Shown piece by piece: positions 39,267-55,214 of a stretch of DNA of 64,000 nt. Below the pieces are notes generated by a model, which was given only the letters and a program-made list of their open reading frames with translations, was not told where the DNA came from and did not search any database. The number at the start of each line of letters is the position of its first letter. Position 1 is the first letter of the stretch. The stretch lies in sequence record PQ871103.1; one strand, 5' to 3'. The translations under genes were made by a program, and so were the position numbers. The stretch is from Escherichia phage vB_Eco_ZCEC15.

Positions 39267-39270
39267 CAAT

Positions 39271-39300
39271 GGGGACCTTTTGGTCCCCATATTTTTATTT
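39271..39300. terminator. bidirectional terminator between gene 54 (+) and minus-strand early genes
   Basis: GGGGACC-TTTT-GGTCCCC hairpin followed by ATATTTTTATTT. Confidence 0.8.
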
Positions 39301-39592: not shown

Positions 39593-39646
39593 TCCTCATG
39601 TTATGTCAGTAAGATTATTATAACACAACACGAGGGACTTGTAAAC
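39593..39646 (-). promoter_or_regulatory. early promoter cassette copy A (GTTTACA-N17-TATAAT plus leader)
   Basis: Minus strand GTTTACAAGTCCCTCGTGTTGTGTTATAATAATCTTACTGACATAACATGAGGA; identical over 54 nt to 55161-55214. Confidence 0.8.
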
Positions 39647-41703
39647 TACATCTTGAACTTTTTAGACATTTCGTTGATGTTAACCAAAGAAGCCAAGATT
39701 TGAGAAACTTCGTTTTCCTCTTCTTTTGATTCTTCTACAAGGAATTGATTAAACCCAGCCATTGGACGAACTTCGCCAGTTTCCATTAGATGATCGCCAT
39801 CATATACCGATTCTTCTAATTGTTCAGAAGGAGGAACGATTGTGCCTTCGATTAGATACTTGTTATAAGCAGTTTCTTTCATCATGTACGTGCTTACTTT
39901 ATTAATCTTCAACAAAATTCCACGCGGTAGAATAACTTCAGCTTCTGATGGAAATCCTGATAAATGACCTGGAACGATAACTTTGATTCGCTCAGCCCCT
40001 TTAATTACCATACCTACGCTAGCTTCAGCATCTTCATTAGCATATGCAGAATGACTACCCATATGCATTAAATCTTCAGCATCAACAGAACCTTCTCCTT
40101 CACCAGAAAATACTGCGCCGGAATCATCTAGAGCCATATAGTTTTTACCATGCTCACCGAAGATATTTGGTTTAAGCGACGTGGATACGAAGTTCTTGAA
40201 ATAGAACATTTTATTTTCAATATTATGACGTAAAGTTTTAAAAGTAACTTCTTGCCCACGATAAAGCGTAGTTCCTGGAGGAAGAACTGATCCTTTGGCG
40301 AATGCAGAATCCAGCGTCTCGATGTGTTTAATAGCTCGTTCAATGTATTCTTCACGGGTAGAATCTGGTTTACCCAAGAGGAACGAGTTCATTTCAACAT
40401 ATGAATCTGCACAATAATCTTCAATTACATCAGACTCAGCCTGAGTCAGTCCTTTTGGAGTTACTTCGGTGCTTGCATATTCATACGCCTGAGCAGCAGA
40501 TGCATTAATCAATTTATAAATGCCATTCATGACAAATCGAATAATAGCTACCTTTTCGTCTGGTGTGGCTTTAGAACCTTTAACTAAATCATTGATAATT
40601 TTCTTAATAACATCAAAGCTATTAGAAATATTAATGTCAGCGAGATCGCTCAAAATTTTATCGGTTTTATAATCAAAAAATTCTTTATTCTTTAAATATT
40701 CTTGAGAACCTTGATGTGTTATATCGCTCTGCAGTCTGATAGACGGATCACGTAAACGTGCATGGGCCAATGCAATATCATTTCGGAAGCTTTCTAGTTC
40801 ATAATCGTTAGATTTAAAACGAGAAGCACTTCTCATACCACCGATAGCTCCTTTGCTGAAGTTTGAACCAATCTGAATAACGCCAGAGTTCATTGATCCT
40901 TCTGCTTTATATACCGGAACTTTAGATTCAAACTCTTGATATTTCTTGGCAGCGAAGCTATCACCCTGTAGCGAAGCATCGACAGTAGAATATTGAGCTT
41001 GCGCTGCTAATCGACGACTAATTTTAGTTTTCTGAATAACAGCTTGATCCGTGCGCTTATCATTTTCTAAAGCAACAGAAGCAGCAACAGCAACAGCTTT
41101 AGGAACAGCATTACCTGTTTTAACATCTACATAAACATCACCAACCTTTGATTCAACTTTTGTGAATAACTCAGTTGAAATAGGAGGTACACCTGGAATG
41201 TCTTCTAAATTGGCATTTTTACGGTAAACCATAATATATGCATACTTTTTATCGTAATCCCAGATTTCCTTTAAAAGAACATATCGACCTGCTCCTTTAG
41301 TACGTACTAAACGGTCAGCAATAACTTGCATCTGACGAGCAGCGCCATTTGTTTTACTTTTTAGTACGCGGAATAGGCATGCGTCAATTTTATACTGTTT
41401 CATTGTTTGAAGAGCAGTATCAAAAACCGCATTAATGACACCAATTGGATTTCCACCCAAGTTTTTAAGTTTAACTAATGATAGTTTCTCATTAACACCT
41501 ATCATTACGATATGCATCATTTTATCGCCTGGCTTAACGTTTTTATTTGTATCACCGCCAGAGGTGTATGTACAAAATCTAAATCCAGGAAGCACGCTTT
41601 CTTCACCGGCTTGAATAGCAAAAATTTGAGGTATTTTATGCTTAGGATTTAAGTTAACAACCGGCGCCGAAGCGCCGTCAAATAATTCTGTAATAAGTTC
41701 CAT
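39646..41703 (-). CDS. Alt-like ADP-ribosyltransferase, paralog 2 (685 aa)
   Basis: N-terminus MELITELFD shared with adjacent paralog; C-terminal ART-like signature: Arg (TTLYRGQ), STS (FVSTSL), Glu-x-Glu (SEAEVILPRG). Confidence 0.85.
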   Translation of the reverse strand: MELITELFDGASAPVVNLNPKHKIPQIFAIQAGEESVLPGFRFCTYTSGGDTNKNVKPGDKMMHIVMIGVNEKLSLVKLKNLGGNPIGVINAVFDTALQTMKQYKIDACLFRVLKSKTNGAARQMQVIADRLVRTKGAGRYVLLKEIWDYDKKYAYIMVYRKNANLEDIPGVPPISTELFTKVESKVGDVYVDVKTGNAVPKAVAVAASVALENDKRTDQAVIQKTKISRRLAAQAQYSTVDASLQGDSFAAKKYQEFESKVPVYKAEGSMNSGVIQIGSNFSKGAIGGMRSASRFKSNDYELESFRNDIALAHARLRDPSIRLQSDITHQGSQEYLKNKEFFDYKTDKILSDLADINISNSFDVIKKIINDLVKGSKATPDEKVAIIRFVMNGIYKLINASAAQAYEYASTEVTPKGLTQAESDVIEDYCADSYVEMNSFLLGKPDSTREEYIERAIKHIETLDSAFAKGSVLPPGTTLYRGQEVTFKTLRHNIENKMFYFKNFVSTSLKPNIFGEHGKNYMALDDSGAVFSGEGEGSVDAEDLMHMGSHSAYANEDAEASVGMVIKGAERIKVIVPGHLSGFPSEAEVILPRGILLKINKVSTYMMKETAYNKYLIEGTIVPPSEQLEESVYDGDHLMETGEVRPMAGFNQFLVEESKEEENEVSQILASLVNINEMSKKFKM

Positions 41704-47058: not shown

Positions 47059-47266
47059 CTTTAATACTTATAATTTCAATATCAGCCCAATGACCGTAAC
47101 TTGGTAAACGGTCTTCAATAGATAATCCGCCATCATATTTAAGCATTTTAATTGTCATAATATATGGCTCTAAATGGTCTTCAGTGAGCGGAGAGACATC
47201 AGTCACACGATAAGTAACTTCGACCATTTCCGTGCCCAGTAATTTCTTGATTAATTTCTTAAACAT
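47051..47266 (-). CDS. hypothetical protein (30.x cluster)
   Basis: 71 aa. Confidence 0.55.
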   Translation of the reverse strand: MFKKLIKKLLGTEMVEVTYRVTDVSPLTEDHLEPYIMTIKMLKYDGGLSIEDRLPSYGHWADIEIISIKDV

Positions 47267-47270
47267 TTTA

Positions 47271-47558
47271 TTAGAACCTCATCTGAAAACCGTGCGATTT
47301 AACATTACCGCCGCCAATATCAGAAATGTTAATTTCACGCGCAATTGAAGGGTCAATGTCAATTTCACGATTGAGTTTAGTGATAGCTAAAGTATCGCGG
47401 CCATTTACAGTACGGAACTCTAAAGGACATACTACATTAACGTAGTTTTTAATCGATTCGCTGGTAGGTTGCAAATGAGCAGGAAGGTCTTTAGGCGCCT
47501 TAGAGAAAACCACTTCACAGAAATTTTTGCGGGTGTCAAAATAAGTAGTCATAAACAT
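47271..47558 (-). CDS. hypothetical protein (30.x cluster)
   Basis: 95 aa. Confidence 0.55.
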   Translation of the reverse strand: MFMTTYFDTRKNFCEVVFSKAPKDLPAHLQPTSESIKNYVNVVCPLEFRTVNGRDTLAITKLNREIDIDPSIAREINISDIGGGNVKSHGFQMRF

Positions 47559-47599: not shown

Positions 47600-47977
47600 T
47601 TAAATATCAAATTCGTTAAGAACTACATCAAAGATTGCTTCAAGATGCTCAGGTTTAGCTCTGTTACTCAGAATATGACGAATCCAAGTTTTAACCAGAA
47701 GCTTGCGATTAACGCCATTCCAGCAAGGATGAGTCCCTAAATCGCGTTGACGAAAATCATCATCCAAAGCGATTTTGAAGTTGGAACCTTCCATTGTGAT
47801 TGAAACCGTGATGCCATTTTCAAATCGCATATAAACGTAGTTAGGAGTCATATACTGTTCAATTTCGCATACTGATCCATTTTGATGTTTCCAAAGGCAA
47901 ATAGTATCAATAGAACCTGCAATACCATTAGAAACATATTTACGTTCAAAGTTGATGTAGTTCATTTTATTCTCCAA
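47600..47977 (-). CDS. hypothetical protein (30.x cluster)
   Basis: 125 aa; own early promoter upstream (47991-48030). Confidence 0.6.
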   Translation of the reverse strand: MENKMNYINFERKYVSNGIAGSIDTICLWKHQNGSVCEIEQYMTPNYVYMRFENGITVSITMEGSNFKIALDDDFRQRDLGTHPCWNGVNRKLLVKTWIRHILSNRAKPEHLEAIFDVVLNEFDI

Positions 47978-47990
47978 GATGTTTAATTGC

Positions 47991-48030
47991 GGTACAGGTA
48001 TATAATATCATATCCTGTACCAAAGTAAAC
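47991..48030 (-). promoter_or_regulatory. early promoter embedded in inverted repeat (PeSL-like)
   Basis: Minus strand GTTTACT-N16-TATTAT; -10 region enclosed by inverted repeat GGTACAGG/CCTGTACC. Confidence 0.7.
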
Positions 48031-48032
48031 AA

Positions 48033-48365
48033 TTATTTTACTACTTTCCAGTGCTGCATGTCAAGTTTACCAACTTTTTTCATCTTCTCAATTAAGCGTT
48101 CGGCACGTTGGCGAGCTGTAACATAATACCATTCACCCAATTCATTTTGTTCAATTTTTCCAACGATTACCGTATTCAATTCATAAATCCAACCAGTAAA
48201 GAAATTATGAACTTGAATTGTAAAGGTGAAATCTGTTCCCATACCTTCTGTTGTTTCTACTTCAATAATATCACCTTCAACTGCCATTAAGAACCACATA
48301 GTTTCATCATATTTACCGTTGAAGCATTTAGTTTTAACTGCAGCGTTCAGATTAATTGTTTTCAT
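48033..48365 (-). CDS. hypothetical protein (30.x cluster)
   Basis: 110 aa; own early promoter upstream (48374-48422). Confidence 0.6.
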   Translation of the reverse strand: MKTINLNAAVKTKCFNGKYDETMWFLMAVEGDIIEVETTEGMGTDFTFTIQVHNFFTGWIYELNTVIVGKIEQNELGEWYYVTARQRAERLIEKMKKVGKLDMQHWKVVK

Positions 48366-48373
48366 TTTATTCT

Positions 48374-48422
48374 CCTTTGTTTGTGTAAGATAATACTATC
48401 ACAAAGGAACCATACTGTAAAC
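48374..48422 (-). promoter_or_regulatory. early promoter embedded in inverted repeat (PeSL-like)
   Basis: Minus strand GTTTACA-N17-TAGTAT with flanking inverted repeat CCTTTGTG/CACAAAGG. Confidence 0.7.
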
Positions 48423-48440
48423 AACTTTGTGCAGTCTTTG

Positions 48441-48470
48441 GAAAATAAAAAAGGACTCCCGAAGGAGTCC
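48441..48470 (-). terminator. intrinsic terminator (GGACUCC-UUCG-GGAGUCC + U-run) after the 58-aa basic protein gene
   Basis: 7-bp stem with UUCG loop on minus strand followed by UUUUUUAUUUUCC. Confidence 0.75.
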
Positions 48471-48475
48471 TCAAC

Positions 48476-48652
48476 TTATGCTTTCTGCTTACCAAAACGA
48501 GAAGCATCATCTCGAAGAACCGCACGTGCTCGGCGCATGATCTTCTCAACAGTTTGATTGATACGAGAGTTCGACCCACGCTTGTAACCAGCGCGTTTAG
48601 AATCACCAACTTTCTTTTCAACTGCTTTCTTTGCTTTAGCTTGTTTTGCCAT
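48476..48652 (-). CDS. small basic protein (position of T4 30.9), 58 aa
   Basis: Second in-frame ATG gives MAKQAKAKKAVEKK...; Lys/Arg-rich; followed on minus strand by hairpin+U-run terminator. Confidence 0.6.
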   Translation of the reverse strand: MAKQAKAKKAVEKKVGDSKRAGYKRGSNSRINQTVEKIMRRARAVLRDDASRFGKQKA

Positions 48653-51075: not shown

Positions 51076-51308
51076 AGTACGCCATACACCCTTTGTGCTT
51101 CAACTAATCCATCAAAATCCAATTTGAGATGTGTTATTTGGTCACCATCACCTGGATTCACAATTACTAATACTGAACGAGGAGTTTCGGTAATAACGCG
51201 AACCGATGTTTCTGGAAATCGTTCAGAAACCTTATTTACCAATTCCTGAGCAAATAGTTTAACTTTTTCTTGGAATTCTTTAACAGTAATTGGTTTTTCG
51301 CTTAGCAT
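51072..51308 (-). CDS. hypothetical protein (cd.x cluster)
   Basis: 78 aa. Confidence 0.55.
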   Translation of the reverse strand: MLSEKPITVKEFQEKVKLFAQELVNKVSERFPETSVRVITETPRSVLVIVNPGDGDQITHLKLDFDGLVEAQRVYGVL

Positions 51309-51829
51309 GTTGATCCTAGCTCCTTACTTTCAACGTTTTTAACTAATTTGACAGAAACTAATTCAGCATCTCGAGTAATCATTACCGGGCCTTCTTCATA
51401 CTCTTCAAGATATTCTAGAGCTTTCTTTTTAGCTTCTTCCTTCGTATCAGTTTGAGCATAGATATAAAACATGCAACCAGTAATACCTACTACTTTCCAC
51501 TTAATTTCTTTATCAGTTTTAATTTCAAATTTACTGACAGAATCATCTTTTTGAACTTCTTCGAAAAAAGAATATTCTAACATATAAGCAATTGAAAATA
51601 ACGGGCTAACTTTATAAGATTCGCCCATTACATCAACAGCTTTATACCAGCAGTCATCAATTTCGCGTTTAATGCTAATAACATTTTTCGCAGGATCTAT
51701 TTTTACTTTAAATGAATTTTCCCCAATAAACTGGGCAATTCGTTTATTAGCCCCGCAAGTTTCATTAAAAATATCTTTATACCCAGCTTTAAAGCGATAA
51801 ACCTTATCTTCTTCAAACCATTCGCTCAT
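51302..51829 (-). CDS. hypothetical protein (cd.x cluster)
   Basis: 175 aa; own early promoter upstream (51851-51889). Confidence 0.6.
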   Translation of the reverse strand: MSEWFEEDKVYRFKAGYKDIFNETCGANKRIAQFIGENSFKVKIDPAKNVISIKREIDDCWYKAVDVMGESYKVSPLFSIAYMLEYSFFEEVQKDDSVSKFEIKTDKEIKWKVVGITGCMFYIYAQTDTKEEAKKKALEYLEEYEEGPVMITRDAELVSVKLVKNVESKELGSTC

Positions 51830-51850: not shown

Positions 51851-51889
51851 GGTAGAGCTATAATATCACAACTCTACCGTAAAGTAAAC
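51851..51889 (-). promoter_or_regulatory. early promoter embedded in inverted repeat (PeSL-like)
   Basis: Minus strand GTTTACT-N17-TATTAT; -10 enclosed by GGTAGAG/CTCTACC inverted repeat. Confidence 0.7.
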
Positions 51890-55153: not shown

Positions 55154-55160
55154 TATAAAG

Positions 55161-55214
55161 TCCTCATGTTATGTCAGTAAGATTATTATAACACAACACG
55201 AGGGACTTGTAAAC
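55161..55214 (-). promoter_or_regulatory. early promoter cassette copy B, upstream of alc
   Basis: 54-nt exact copy of 39593-39646, including -35, -10 and leader through the ribosome-binding region. Confidence 0.8.

Follow-up and report, generated by a model that had tools for sequence, protein, structure and literature searches.

The locus raises the question why early promoters of Escherichia phage vB_Eco_ZCEC15 (PQ871103.1) carry their -10 element within an inverted repeat, and whether the repeat acts as a binding site for a protein, as a DNA structure or as an RNA structure. The window, i.e. the whole stretch of 64,000 nucleotides that was analysed, belongs to Tequatrovirus, with 97-99% identity to genomes of this genus; BLAST gave roughly 700-950 related genomes. 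The three promoters considered here (sites 1-3) are known sigma-70 early promoters of a T4-type phage, located on the minus strand and followed by the genes 30.7 (site 1), 30.8 (site 2) and cd.2/ORF214c (site 3). Their T4 counterparts are essentially identical in sequence; site 3 corresponds to Pe133295, a promoter named in the T4 record, and in the record of fPS-90 both site 1 and site 2 are entered as early promoters ('predicted early promoter' at site 1). Judged from T4 annotation and literature only, the three sites would be active right after infection with the unmodified host RNA polymerase.

The sequence features of T4-type early promoters were all found at sites 1-3: a GTTTAC-like -35 element, a spacer of 16-18 nt, a -10 box of the form TAnnnT that is TGn-extended in each case, minus-strand orientation, and a Shine-Dalgarno sequence with ATG directly downstream. 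The T4 Pe promoters of the 'UP/-35/TGn/-10' type (Hinton 2010, PMC2988021) show the same GTTTAC, a 17-18 nt spacer, a TGn-extended TAnnAT and clustering in minus-strand early regions, and as promoters sites 1-3 do not differ from this class. For early promoters that review mentions 'additional regions of consensus', but it is silent on inverted repeats enclosing the -10 element. The distance between the upstream gene's stop codon and the next start codon is 60-70 nt, and the promoters are packed inside it in the order stop codon, early promoter, Shine-Dalgarno sequence and ATG (47965 at site 1, 48365 at site 2 and 51829 at site 3), which is the layout of the promoter-early stem-loop (PeSL) cassettes. 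The parts are as follows.

48030-48025, minus strand: -35 element GTTTAC of site 1, 2 nt past the stop codon of 30.8, the same in T4
48021-48014, minus strand: 5' arm of site 1, GGTACAGG, within the -35/-10 spacer
48007-48002, minus strand: -10 element TATTAT of site 1, preceded by TGA, in the apical part of the hairpin
47998-47991, minus strand: 3' arm of site 1, CCTGTACC, enclosing the probable transcription start
48422-48417, minus strand: -35 element GTTTAC of site 2, the early promoter of 30.8
48408-48401, minus strand: 5' arm of site 2, TCCTTTGT, in the spacer, a predicted anti-Shine-Dalgarno sequence
48398-48393, minus strand: -10 element TAGTAT of site 2, preceded by TGA
48380-48373, minus strand: 3' arm of site 2, ACAAAGGA, overlapping the 30.8 Shine-Dalgarno sequence AAGGAG (48377-48372), with the ATG at 48365-48363
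48451..48472, minus strand: intrinsic terminator hairpin GAGGACTCCTTCGGGAGTCCTT with T-run, lying just upstream of site 2 and marked as a terminator in the records of fPS-90 and Aplg8
51889-51884, minus strand: -35 element GTTTAC of site 3, between cd.3 and RB32ORF214c
51878-51872, minus strand: 5' arm of site 3, GGTAGAG, in the spacer
51865-51860, minus strand: -10 element TATTAT of site 3, preceded by TGA
51857-51851, minus strand: 3' arm of site 3, CTCTACC, whose A at 51853 is the counterpart of the T4 start 133295
55158..55214, minus strand: 54-bp cassette copy A, the alc early promoter, with the -35 element at 55214-55209 and the -10 element TATAAT at 55190-55185
39594..39646, minus strand: 54-bp cassette copy B, the alt.-3 promoter, directly after the alt stop codon

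Minus-strand GTTTAC promoters whose -10 element lies inside an inverted repeat, as reported for these positions in the preliminary description, are thus present in the sequence, and some of the details given there need correction. The repeat, which is perfect at each site, comprises 8 bp around a 15-nt loop containing TGA-TATTAT at site 1 and 8 bp around a 20-nt loop at site 2, the repeat length that had been stated, and only 7 bp around a 14-nt loop at site 3. Measured from GTTTAC to the -10 hexamer the spacers are 17, 18 and 18 nt; the 16 or 17 nt given earlier are obtained (as 16, 17 and 17) only when the -35 element is read as TTTACN. At site 2 the arms CCTTTGTG/CACAAAGG that had been described do not occur, the right side reading CACAAACAAAGG, but a perfect 8-bp repeat, TCCTTTGT/ACAAAGGA, is found one base over.

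Such repeats occur at early promoters far more often than expected by chance. Of 3355 TAnnnT hexamers in the window, 4.4% are enclosed by a perfect repeat of 7 bp or more and 1.6% by one of 8 bp or more. In T4, perfect repeats of at least 7 bp enclose the -10 element in 13 of 33 early promoters, compared with about one expected, and the enrichment is approximately tenfold against each of three null models: segment shuffles (0.94, with a maximum of 6 in 1000), downstream halves swapped between promoters, which keeps the consensus-derived complementarity (1.3), and genomic TAnnnT hexamers (1.3). The predicted folds are also more stable than those of shuffled sequences, the z-scores ranging from -2.5 to -6.9 for the five promoters of the window (sites 1-3 and both cassette copies) and averaging -2.9 for the T4 early promoters, 18 of 33 being below -2. 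An equal frequency of such repeats in shuffled sequence had been named beforehand as the outcome that would speak against the pattern; since the counts from shuffles and from the hexamer background lie far below those at promoters, this outcome was not obtained.

The predicted RNA fold of site 1 is a hairpin (48022-47990) of -16.1 kcal/mol with z -4.0, and the antisense strand gives about the same energy (-15.9 kcal/mol). In the minimum-energy fold of site 2 (-12.1 kcal/mol, z -2.5) the Shine-Dalgarno sequence is paired. At site 3 the RNA stem, including G.U pairs, is predicted to extend to 12 bp with -16.3 kcal/mol and z -5.4, compared with only -9.1 kcal/mol for the antisense strand. The hairpins of sites 1 and 3, compact and intergenic, leave the Shine-Dalgarno sequence unpaired and have no U-tract. 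The 54-bp cassette, which had been said to show the same feature, does so in a modified form, as the perfect repeats around its -10 element are just 6 bp long, while a 13-bp stem (CCTCGTGTT/AACATGAGG plus extensions) appears when G.U pairs are allowed. Its copies A and B are identical. In the predicted fold of copy A the Shine-Dalgarno sequence GAGG is part of AACATGAGGACTT (55170-55158), the pairing partner of the 5' strand 55208-55195, the hairpin reaching -22.3 kcal/mol (z -6.9) compared with -13.2 kcal/mol in antisense; copy B is predicted to form the same Shine-Dalgarno-masking hairpin, CCTCGTGTT (39635-39627) pairing with AACATGAGG (39602-39594) at -21.4 kcal/mol (z -6.0).

The comparison of the arms indicates at which level the repeat is selected. 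The 13 perfect T4 repeats with 7 bp or more, whose arm families were grouped by eye, have arms of about nine unrelated sequences and loops of 8-27 nt, and where copies are related their differences are mirrored in the two arms: GGTA[C]AG/CT[G]TACC compared with GGTA[G]AG/CT[C]TACC, ATAGG[G]T/A[C]CCTAT with ATAGG[C]T/A[G]CCTAT, and GA[T]T/A[A]TC with GA[C]T/A[G]TC. For the T4 promoters, the stabilisation beyond shuffles is -6.9 kcal/mol for the sense RNA and -4.4 kcal/mol for the antisense (p = 5e-4), and the imperfections of the arms are of the G.U type, which is tolerated in the sense RNA only. The differing arms, the compensatory changes and the sense bias together point to an RNA hairpin and not to a shared operator; selection acts on complementarity and not on a recognition sequence.

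Orthologues of site 3 retain the pairing, with an A-U pair changed to G.U in the RB69 type and, in Dhakavirus, two double changes together with a change of U.G to C-G. IMG/VR supplied 9-13 loci, too few for a strong covariation test, and eight GenBank phages were used instead. The covariation count over 10 orthologues of site 3 is modest: 83% of the cells are paired, compared with 23-59% when the arms are slid, three pairs show double changes, and the observed pairing is reached by 11 of 500 shuffles. In two orthologues, IME08 and TH15, the hairpin is absent at site 3. At site 1 the arm is unchanged in the orthologues from Tequatro-, Dhaka- and Gaprivervirus while loop and leader vary, and one natural variant turns a G-C pair into G.U. 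Invariant arms of this kind are silent on pairing and would also suit a sequence-specific site. A search of Rfam gave no family match at sites 1-3, and its only match, below the threshold, fell on the terminator hairpin (48437-48520).

The position of the arms relative to the transcription start suggests what the hairpin may do. The T4 start 133295 falls on the bracketed A of CTCT[A]CC, within the 3' arm of site 3; by analogy, the start of site 1 is placed at about 47995, 7 nt past the -10 element and likewise within the 3' arm, and that of site 2 is taken as 7 nt after the -10 element, at about 48386. The 5' arm occupies the -35/-10 spacer, and the 3' arm lies at or just past the start, or at the Shine-Dalgarno sequence. 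With the start inside the 3' arm, folding would be limited to read-through transcripts, the 5' strand being missing from the promoter's own RNA according to the T4 start that maps to site 3 and the probable starts at sites 1 and 2. RNA initiated at the promoter itself would have an open leader, whereas RNA reading through from an upstream promoter would contain both arms and fold, so that the hairpin would mark where the transcript began. We consider it probable that the sites as a whole are PeSL early promoters whose repeat has been selected as a sense-RNA hairpin marking transcript origin, with a further role in crossover; the formation of the hairpins in vivo and their roles are proposed from predicted folds. 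The intergenic space is so short that any hairpin within it overlaps the promoter, and the straddling of the start may in part be forced and not selected.

For one group of promoters the hairpin appears to be connected with translation. Site 2 and both cassette copies have predicted folds with a paired Shine-Dalgarno sequence, and in 11 of the 33 T4 promoters this sequence is predicted to pair with the spacer. An anti-Shine-Dalgarno tetramer is present in 14 of the 33 T4 spacers compared with a background of 14% (p = 7e-5), and the own Shine-Dalgarno sequence pairs better with the spacer than swapped ones do, the observed mean being reached by none of 5000 permutations (p < 2e-4). At site 2, alc and alt.-3, translation of the downstream gene and exposure of GGAG to RegB would therefore be confined to RNA from the gene's own immediate-early promoter. 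At sites 1 and 3 the hairpin may form an inter-cistron barrier that either shields the upstream mRNA at its 3' end or attenuates read-through; this is the weakest step of the explanation.

The hairpins of the T4 genes e, soc, 49 and I-TevI (PMC3014915) provide a precedent, as the 5' strand contains the promoter or directly precedes it, long transcripts fold and hide the Shine-Dalgarno sequence or the AUG, and transcripts from the internal promoter, devoid of the 5' strand, are translated. This geometry is exactly that of site 2 and the 54-bp cassette, whereas sites 1 and 3 differ in leaving the Shine-Dalgarno sequence unpaired. Those genes have a late internal promoter (a late or middle one in I-TevI) and so are active late and silent before. 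The internal promoter of site 2 and the cassette is, in contrast, immediate-early, so the predicted outcome is reversed, with translation only from the earliest transcripts.

The design of these promoters is real and non-random, and it has already been described under the name of PeSL cassettes of T4-like phages by Krisch and colleagues (Arbiol et al. 2010, PMC2839356; Comeau et al. 2014, PMC4122927), so that its value as a new discovery is small. In the 2010 paper a PeSL is defined by a sequence that can fold into a stable stem-loop within the promoter or beside it, with five subclasses, one of them overlapping the -10 element, and analogous AT-rich elements are cited from the internal-protein loci of T-even phages (Repoila et al. 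1994). A stem-loop of this kind is present at the window promoters, with z-scores of -2.5 to -6.9. The likeness comprises an intergenic early promoter with a stem-loop ending in the Shine-Dalgarno sequence and ATG of the next gene, and repetition along variable early regions in which neighbours are gained, lost or replaced among close relatives. The stem-loops of RB49 and phi1 are mostly placed in the stretch from -35 to -10 or extend over the -10 element, like the window sites; their stems are G/C-rich (GGGG...CCCC) beside near-consensus TTGACA promoters, one of them shown to terminate, whereas the window stems are AT-rich and lack U-tracts. In the 2014 paper the T4/PST stem-loops are located immediately upstream of the promoter, like the terminator before site 2 (the hairpin 48472-48451 is the stem-loop of that paper), and arms enclosing the -10 element are not described. 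The sense-RNA bias and the Shine-Dalgarno pairing of the window stems are likewise unmentioned in the accessible PeSL text.

Recurrence and gene exchange were both found, with 33 promoters in T4 and indels or ORF replacement between relatives. T2 is devoid of 30.8 and of the site 1 cassette; 235Ecol030PP has a different ORF between the two cassettes that flank 30.8; ORF214c follows site 3 in the window and is absent from T4; and Dhakavirus has, at the position of site 2, a different cassette resembling the T4 ipII promoter. At the T2 junction the site 2 cassette is fused to the ATG of 30.7 within the common GGAGAATAAAATG block, a form that may stem from a deletion by recombination between neighbouring cassettes, the process expected of PeSLs to yield mini-circles or deletions. 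The cassettes may serve as crossover points for the gain, loss and replacement of genes because they share blocks of about 15-30 nt (the -35 box, TGnTAnnAT and GGAGAATAAAATG). The suggestion of a family of mobile promoter cassettes, made in the preliminary description, agrees with this recurrence over the early regions, with the gene turnover at the cassettes and with the published PeSLs, and the interpretation given there is, as a whole, partly supported.

The authors of the PeSL papers proposed that the stem-loops terminate or attenuate upstream transcription, insulating the gene cassettes and limiting the build-up of read-through. As the main reason for the repeats of the window we regard this as unlikely. 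According to Arbiol et al. (2010, PMC2839356), one RB49 stem-loop was as effective as the rrnB T1 terminator in reducing lacZ expression, and the stem-loops are most often placed between -35 and -10 or over the -10 element; the window hairpins are, moreover, situated exactly at gene ends and are predicted to be stable as RNA. However, the 3' arms are followed by GCAAUUAAAC, GAAUAAAAUG and AAAACAAAUG, without a U-tract, and the window stems are AT-rich, unlike the GC-rich RB49 element (GGGG...CCCC) used in that experiment. A terminator scan found that only the separate hairpin 48472-48451 upstream of site 2 fits the consensus, and an intrinsic terminator at sites 1-3 was rejected, a G+C-rich stem with a direct U-run being absent. 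The Shine-Dalgarno sequence itself forms the 3' arm in about a third of the T4 cases, a feature that suggests a role in translation and not in termination.

A second alternative, which we hold to be quite improbable, places the action on the DNA, where a hairpin, a cruciform or a fold of the single strand would drive template switching and cassette exchange, or the repeat would have arisen neutrally through quasi-palindrome 'correction' mutations. T4 rII was the first case in which mutation templated by a quasi-palindrome was shown. Indels and cassette swaps are located at the elements, and a T4 sequence of 1985 (X03007.1) has the site 3 loop exactly inverted, a change that a hairpin could template; the inverted loop was, however, found in 0 of about 437 genomes. 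At -5 to -8 kcal/mol and with loops of 8-20 nt, the hairpins predicted for DNA are weak and unfavourable for cruciform extrusion, and a DNA cruciform was rejected on this ground. A process acting on DNA should be strand-symmetric and yield perfect Watson-Crick arms, whereas the imperfections observed are G.T on the sense strand and A.C on the other, and stabilisation is significantly greater in the sense RNA. The crossover observed in T2 lies, furthermore, in the shared block of Shine-Dalgarno sequence and ATG, outside the arms.

The T4 record notes that the 14-nt loop of site 3 was an 'inverted complement' in an earlier sequence. A natural flip of the promoter at site 3 was considered and rejected, as the inverted loop occurs in its full context only in X03007.1 and about 436 genomes have the forward form, the other matches of the search being trivial opposite-strand matches of the palindrome. 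An invertible switch was likewise rejected, a segment of 14 nt being far too short for recombinase-driven inversion.

That the repeat is a palindromic operator bound by a dimeric DNA-binding protein, for instance an unknown factor that shuts off the T4 early promoters minutes after infection, is very improbable, and the operator-like site shared by these promoters that had been suggested earlier is not borne out. A symmetric site centred on the -10 element is a classic repressor layout, the shut-off of early promoters has been called not completely understood (PMC3014915; PMC2988021), the arms of site 1 are strictly conserved over three genera in spite of the varying loop and leader, and sites 1 and 3 have the pattern GGTA.AG/CT.TACC in common. 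The arms of most promoters are nevertheless unrelated, and the shared operator was discarded on account of the roughly nine arm sequences among the 13 T4 repeats; with an arm spacing of 8-27 nt there is no fixed half-site, the Shine-Dalgarno sequence is the 3' arm in about a third of the promoters, the copies that are related differ by mirrored changes, and the asymmetry of G.U-type imperfections between the strands is meaningless to a protein that binds the duplex. Chance combined with the shared ancestry of duplicated, functionless cassettes is already disfavoured and hardly credible, for although several promoters are clearly related copies, the two 54-bp copies being identical, and AT-rich sequence readily makes short repeats, the enrichment holds against three null models, one of them swapping real downstream halves, some nine arm families are independent, compensatory changes separate related copies, and the hairpin survives sequence turnover in other genera.

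The explanation of the repeat as a sense-RNA hairpin marking transcript origin could be extended to the whole genome of T-even phages, and it is tempting to speculate, tentatively and with more doubt than confidence, that about half of the early promoters operate as a filter by which a promoter's own RNA stays open and read-through RNA is folded. In the class with a paired Shine-Dalgarno sequence the folded copies would be translationally masked and shielded from cleavage by RegB, and in the class with an apical -10 element they would be bounded by an inter-cistron hairpin. The idea was not found for early promoters in the literature searched; Liebig & Rueger (1989), Miller et al. (2003) and Repoila et al. 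(1994) lay outside this search, and an earlier description is possible. A literature search for maps of T4 3' ends or transcription starts gave nothing usable. If the filter exists, many immediate-early proteins would cease to be made once their own promoter goes quiet, despite read-through, which could explain part of the abrupt and still unexplained drop in early protein synthesis.

The analysis clarifies that the repeats are clearly selected, the selection acting on the sense RNA and not on a site for protein binding, with a fold expected only in read-through transcripts. It bears on two open points of T4 biology, the sharp stop of early protein synthesis and the GGAG sites that escape cleavage by RegB. 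For the engineering of these phages it implies that inserting or deleting genes at the cassettes alters the folding of the neighbouring messages and probably their translation. More generally, it offers a testable rule by which a dense phage genome may give each small early gene an expression window of its own.

The three minus-strand early promoters with the -10 element inside an inverted repeat were confirmed at their coordinates, with minor errors in the preliminary description. The spacers between GTTTAC and the -10, described there as 16 or 17 nt, are 17, 18 and 18 nt, and the repeat of 8 bp is found at sites 1 and 2, that of site 3 being 7 bp. The arms first proposed for site 2, CCTTTGTG/CACAAAGG, are absent, the right side being CACAAACAAAGG; a shift by one base gives a perfect repeat of 8 bp. 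The 54-bp early-promoter cassette, said to have the same feature, contains perfect repeats of just 6 bp, together with an RNA stem of at least 13 bp when G.U pairs are included. A TGn extended -10 is present at all three sites.

Promoters of the window, with arms of the repeat and predicted RNA folds (kcal/mol)
Site 1, 47991-48030, minus strand: between 30.8 and 30.7; GTTTAC-17 nt-TATTAT; arms GGTACAGG/CCTGTACC, 8 bp perfect, 15-nt loop; sense -16.1, z -4.0; antisense equal
Site 2, 48373-48422, minus strand: between 30.9 and 30.8; GTTTAC-18 nt-TAGTAT; arms TCCTTTGT/ACAAAGGA, 8 bp perfect, 20-nt loop; sense -12.1, z -2.5
Site 3, 51851-51889, minus strand: between cd.3 and RB32ORF214c; GTTTAC-18 nt-TATTAT; arms GGTAGAG/CTCTACC, 7 bp, 14-nt loop; sense -16.3, z -5.4; antisense -9.1, much weaker
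54-bp cassette, 39594-39646, minus strand: copy before alt.-3; sense -21.4, z -6.0; antisense -15.8, much weaker
54-bp cassette, 55158-55214, minus strand: identical copy before alc, 15.6 kb apart; sense -22.3, z -6.9; antisense -13.2, much weaker

The sites were placed by means of the T4-style annotation of one near-identical genome and of T4 itself, and every gene around sites 1-3 is on the minus strand. A sequence search with 5 kb around the finding gave matches in 809 phage records; the full length was matched at 95-99% identity in more than 470, the latter all Tequatrovirus or other T4-like phages with E. coli, Shigella and Yersinia as hosts. The T4 counterparts of the three promoters are identical or nearly identical in sequence, that of site 3 being named Pe133295 in the T4 record. 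In fPS-90, both site 1 and site 2 are annotated as "predicted early promoter", and a terminator is marked immediately upstream of site 2. RB32ORF214c (175 aa, 51302-51829) comes directly after the promoter of site 3 and shares 7 nt with the start of cd.2; it is absent from T4, where the promoter therefore leads into cd.2. T4 gene 30.5 is missing from the window (47266-47271), where, as in vB_SsoM_113, 30.6 comes straight after 30.4. Just upstream of site 1, inside the 3' end of 30.8 (48035-48064), TTGACA-18-TAAAAT matches the sigma-70 consensus at 11 of 12 positions, probably by chance. In the window alt (39646-41703) directly adjoins the 54-bp cassette; T4 has partial duplications of alt, alt.-1 and alt.-2, which are missing here. 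A perfect 9-bp GC-rich hairpin, ATGGGGACC-AAAA-GGTCCCCAT (39269-39290), lies between the convergent alt.-3 and 54 and is terminator-like on both strands.

Inverted repeats around the -10 exceed chance. Perfect enclosing repeats of at least 7 bp surround 4.4% of the 3355 TAnnnT hexamers of the window (1.6% for at least 8 bp) and three of its five GTTTAC promoters; when G.U pairs are counted, every one of the five has a repeat of at least 9 bp, the background being 4.7%. A collection, from the whole T4 genome, of intergenic GTTTAC-N16-18-TAnnnT promoters on the minus strand that lead to a Shine-Dalgarno sequence and ATG came to 33, and perfect repeats around the -10 of at least 7, 8 and 9 bp were found in 13, 8 and 5 of them, respectively. 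For at least 7 bp, the expected count was 0.94 (maximum 6 in 1000) when spacer and downstream segments were shuffled, 1.3 from genomic TAnnnT hexamers, and 1.3 when real downstream halves were swapped among promoters, a null that retains the complementarity owed to the promoter consensus. A frequency at chance level in shuffled controls, named beforehand as the refuting outcome, was therefore not obtained.

That RNA base pairing is selected, and not a protein-binding site, is indicated by three results. No half-site is common to the 13 T4 repeats, whose arms represent about nine unrelated sequences and whose loops range from 8 to 27 nt. Where copies are related, a change in one arm is mirrored in the other, as in GGTA[C]AG/CT[G]TACC (site 1) and GGTA[G]AG/CT[C]TACC (site 3), ATAGG[G]T/A[C]CCTAT and ATAGG[C]T/A[G]CCTAT, or GA[T]T/A[A]TC and GA[C]T/A[G]TC in the T4 57990/20612 pair. 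When the segments from spacer to ATG of the 33 T4 promoters were folded as RNA and compared with their own shuffles, the mean z was -2.9, with 18 of 33 below -2, against -0.4 for random genomic 56-mers; stabilisation beyond the shuffles was 6.9 kcal/mol for the sense and 4.4 for the antisense strand (Wilcoxon p = 5e-4; z -2.94 against -2.05, p = 0.002), because G.U pairs turn into A.C on the opposite strand. The shared operator-like site suggested initially was rejected on the diversity of the arms and their mirrored changes. A cruciform was also rejected, the predicted DNA hairpins being weak (-5 to -8 kcal/mol), and an Rfam search returned no family matching the sites.

The site-1 arms are invariant across Tequatrovirus, Dhakavirus and Gaprivervirus genomes while loop and leader vary; one natural variant (related phage locus L015) changes a G-C pair to G.U. 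The site-3 stem is retained through changes: RB69-type phages carry GGTGGAG/CTCTACC (A-U to G.U), in one Dhakavirus GGTAGGACT/AGTCCTACC shows two compensatory double changes and one of U.G to C-G, and the inner pairs of orthologues alternate between U-A and U.G. A formal count on 10 site-3 orthologues, supportive of the stem and not decisive, gave 83% of cells paired against 23-59% in slid registers, three pairs altered on both sides, and the observed pairing reached by just 11 of 500 shuffles; in this set the stem is absent from IME08 and TH15. Other genera have a like design with other sequences, such as CTCCTCATG/CATGAGGAG in Dhakavirus, where the site-2 position has an anti-Shine-Dalgarno arm (CTCCGGT/ACTGGAG).

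In every case the 5' arm lies in the -35/-10 spacer. The T4 start implied by the name Pe133295 is the A of CTCT[A]CC, 7 nt past the -10 and within the 3' arm (51853 in the window), so that the promoter's own RNA cannot form the hairpin, which would fold only in RNA arriving from upstream. Two classes were distinguished. In the first, Shine-Dalgarno-pairing class, the Shine-Dalgarno sequence itself serves as the 3' arm; site 2, both cassette copies and about one third of T4 early promoters belong here. Predicted folds of the 33 T4 promoters show it bound to the spacer in 11 cases. Of the 33 spacers, 14 contain an anti-Shine-Dalgarno tetramer, compared with 14% in the background (p = 7e-5), and spacers pair better with their own Shine-Dalgarno than with swapped ones (0 of 5000 permutations reach the observed mean, p < 2e-4). 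The same arrangement has been demonstrated experimentally in T4 for e, soc, 49 and I-TevI, in which the ribosome-binding site is freed by a promoter within the hairpin (PMC3014915); here the inner promoter is immediate-early. Since RNA structure protects GGAG sites from RegB (PMC3014915), masking would also guard read-through RNA against this enzyme. In the second, -10-apical class (sites 1 and 3 and about nine T4 promoters), the 3' arm begins 0-3 nt past the -10, leaving the Shine-Dalgarno unpaired. These hairpins are not followed by a U-tract, and an intrinsic terminator was rejected at sites 1-3, where the terminator scan makes no call. We infer, as the least secure step, that they may act as an inter-cistron barrier, as 3'-end stabiliser or attenuator. 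A third type of promoter, at T4 2458, 50973 and 167086, carries a small hairpin (CCACAAGGATGTGG; CCAC...GTGG at 167086) entirely within the spacer, without spanning the -10.

The T4 GenBank record describes the 14-nt site-3 loop (T4 133300-133313; window 51858-51871) as "inverted complement of previously reported sequence", the flipped form being that of the 1985 entry X03007.1. A natural promoter flip was rejected: in context, the inverted loop occurs in X03007.1 only and in none of about 436 modern genomes, and it thus probably arose as an artefact of cloning or sequencing, with the hairpin as template.

The reading as mobile cassettes fits the gain, loss and replacement of genes at these elements, as well as the published promoter-early stem-loop (PeSL) concept. 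In the region corresponding to window 47963-48422, phage T2 is without 30.8 and the site-1 cassette; the site-2 cassette there continues straight to the 30.7 ATG, with the junction within a shared GGAGAATAAAATG block. In 235Ecol030PP the site-1 and site-2 cassettes flank an unrelated 369-nt ORF, and ORF214c directly follows site 3 in the window and is absent in T4. In the 30.9/30.8 gap of Dhakavirus (L010-L014 and L032, Bp7/JS98-like loci) the site-2 position holds a different cassette, nearly matching the T4 ipII promoter (T4 65413), whose 3' 40 nt copy the neighbouring site-1 cassette, which suggests gene conversion between adjacent cassettes.

According to the passages of Arbiol et al. 2010 (PMC2839356) on these elements, PeSLs were defined in RB49/phi1 as cassettes that combine an early promoter with a stem-loop, the latter being commonest between -35 and -10 or over the -10, and were proposed to act as terminators and as sites of crossover in modular shuffling; the T-even elements of Repoila et al. 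1994 are presented there as analogues on T4 early promoters with weaker, AT-rich stems. The PST/T4 section of Comeau et al. 2014 (PMC4122927) extends PeSLs to these phages with stem-loops immediately upstream of the promoter, whereas here the arms enclose the -10. Hinton's early-promoter review (PMC2988021) does not mention the repeats. From the PeSL papers it follows that the architecture and the mobile-cassette reading are already published, and the promoters are T4's own; a figure for the enrichment across the genome, the bias towards sense RNA and the division into Shine-Dalgarno-pairing and -10-apical hairpins are added here without a claim of novelty, which is low. The inverted-repeat feature is real and selected, and is best explained as the RNA hairpin part of known PeSL-type early-promoter cassettes, the residual interest, which is moderate, lying in the putative function of the hairpin.
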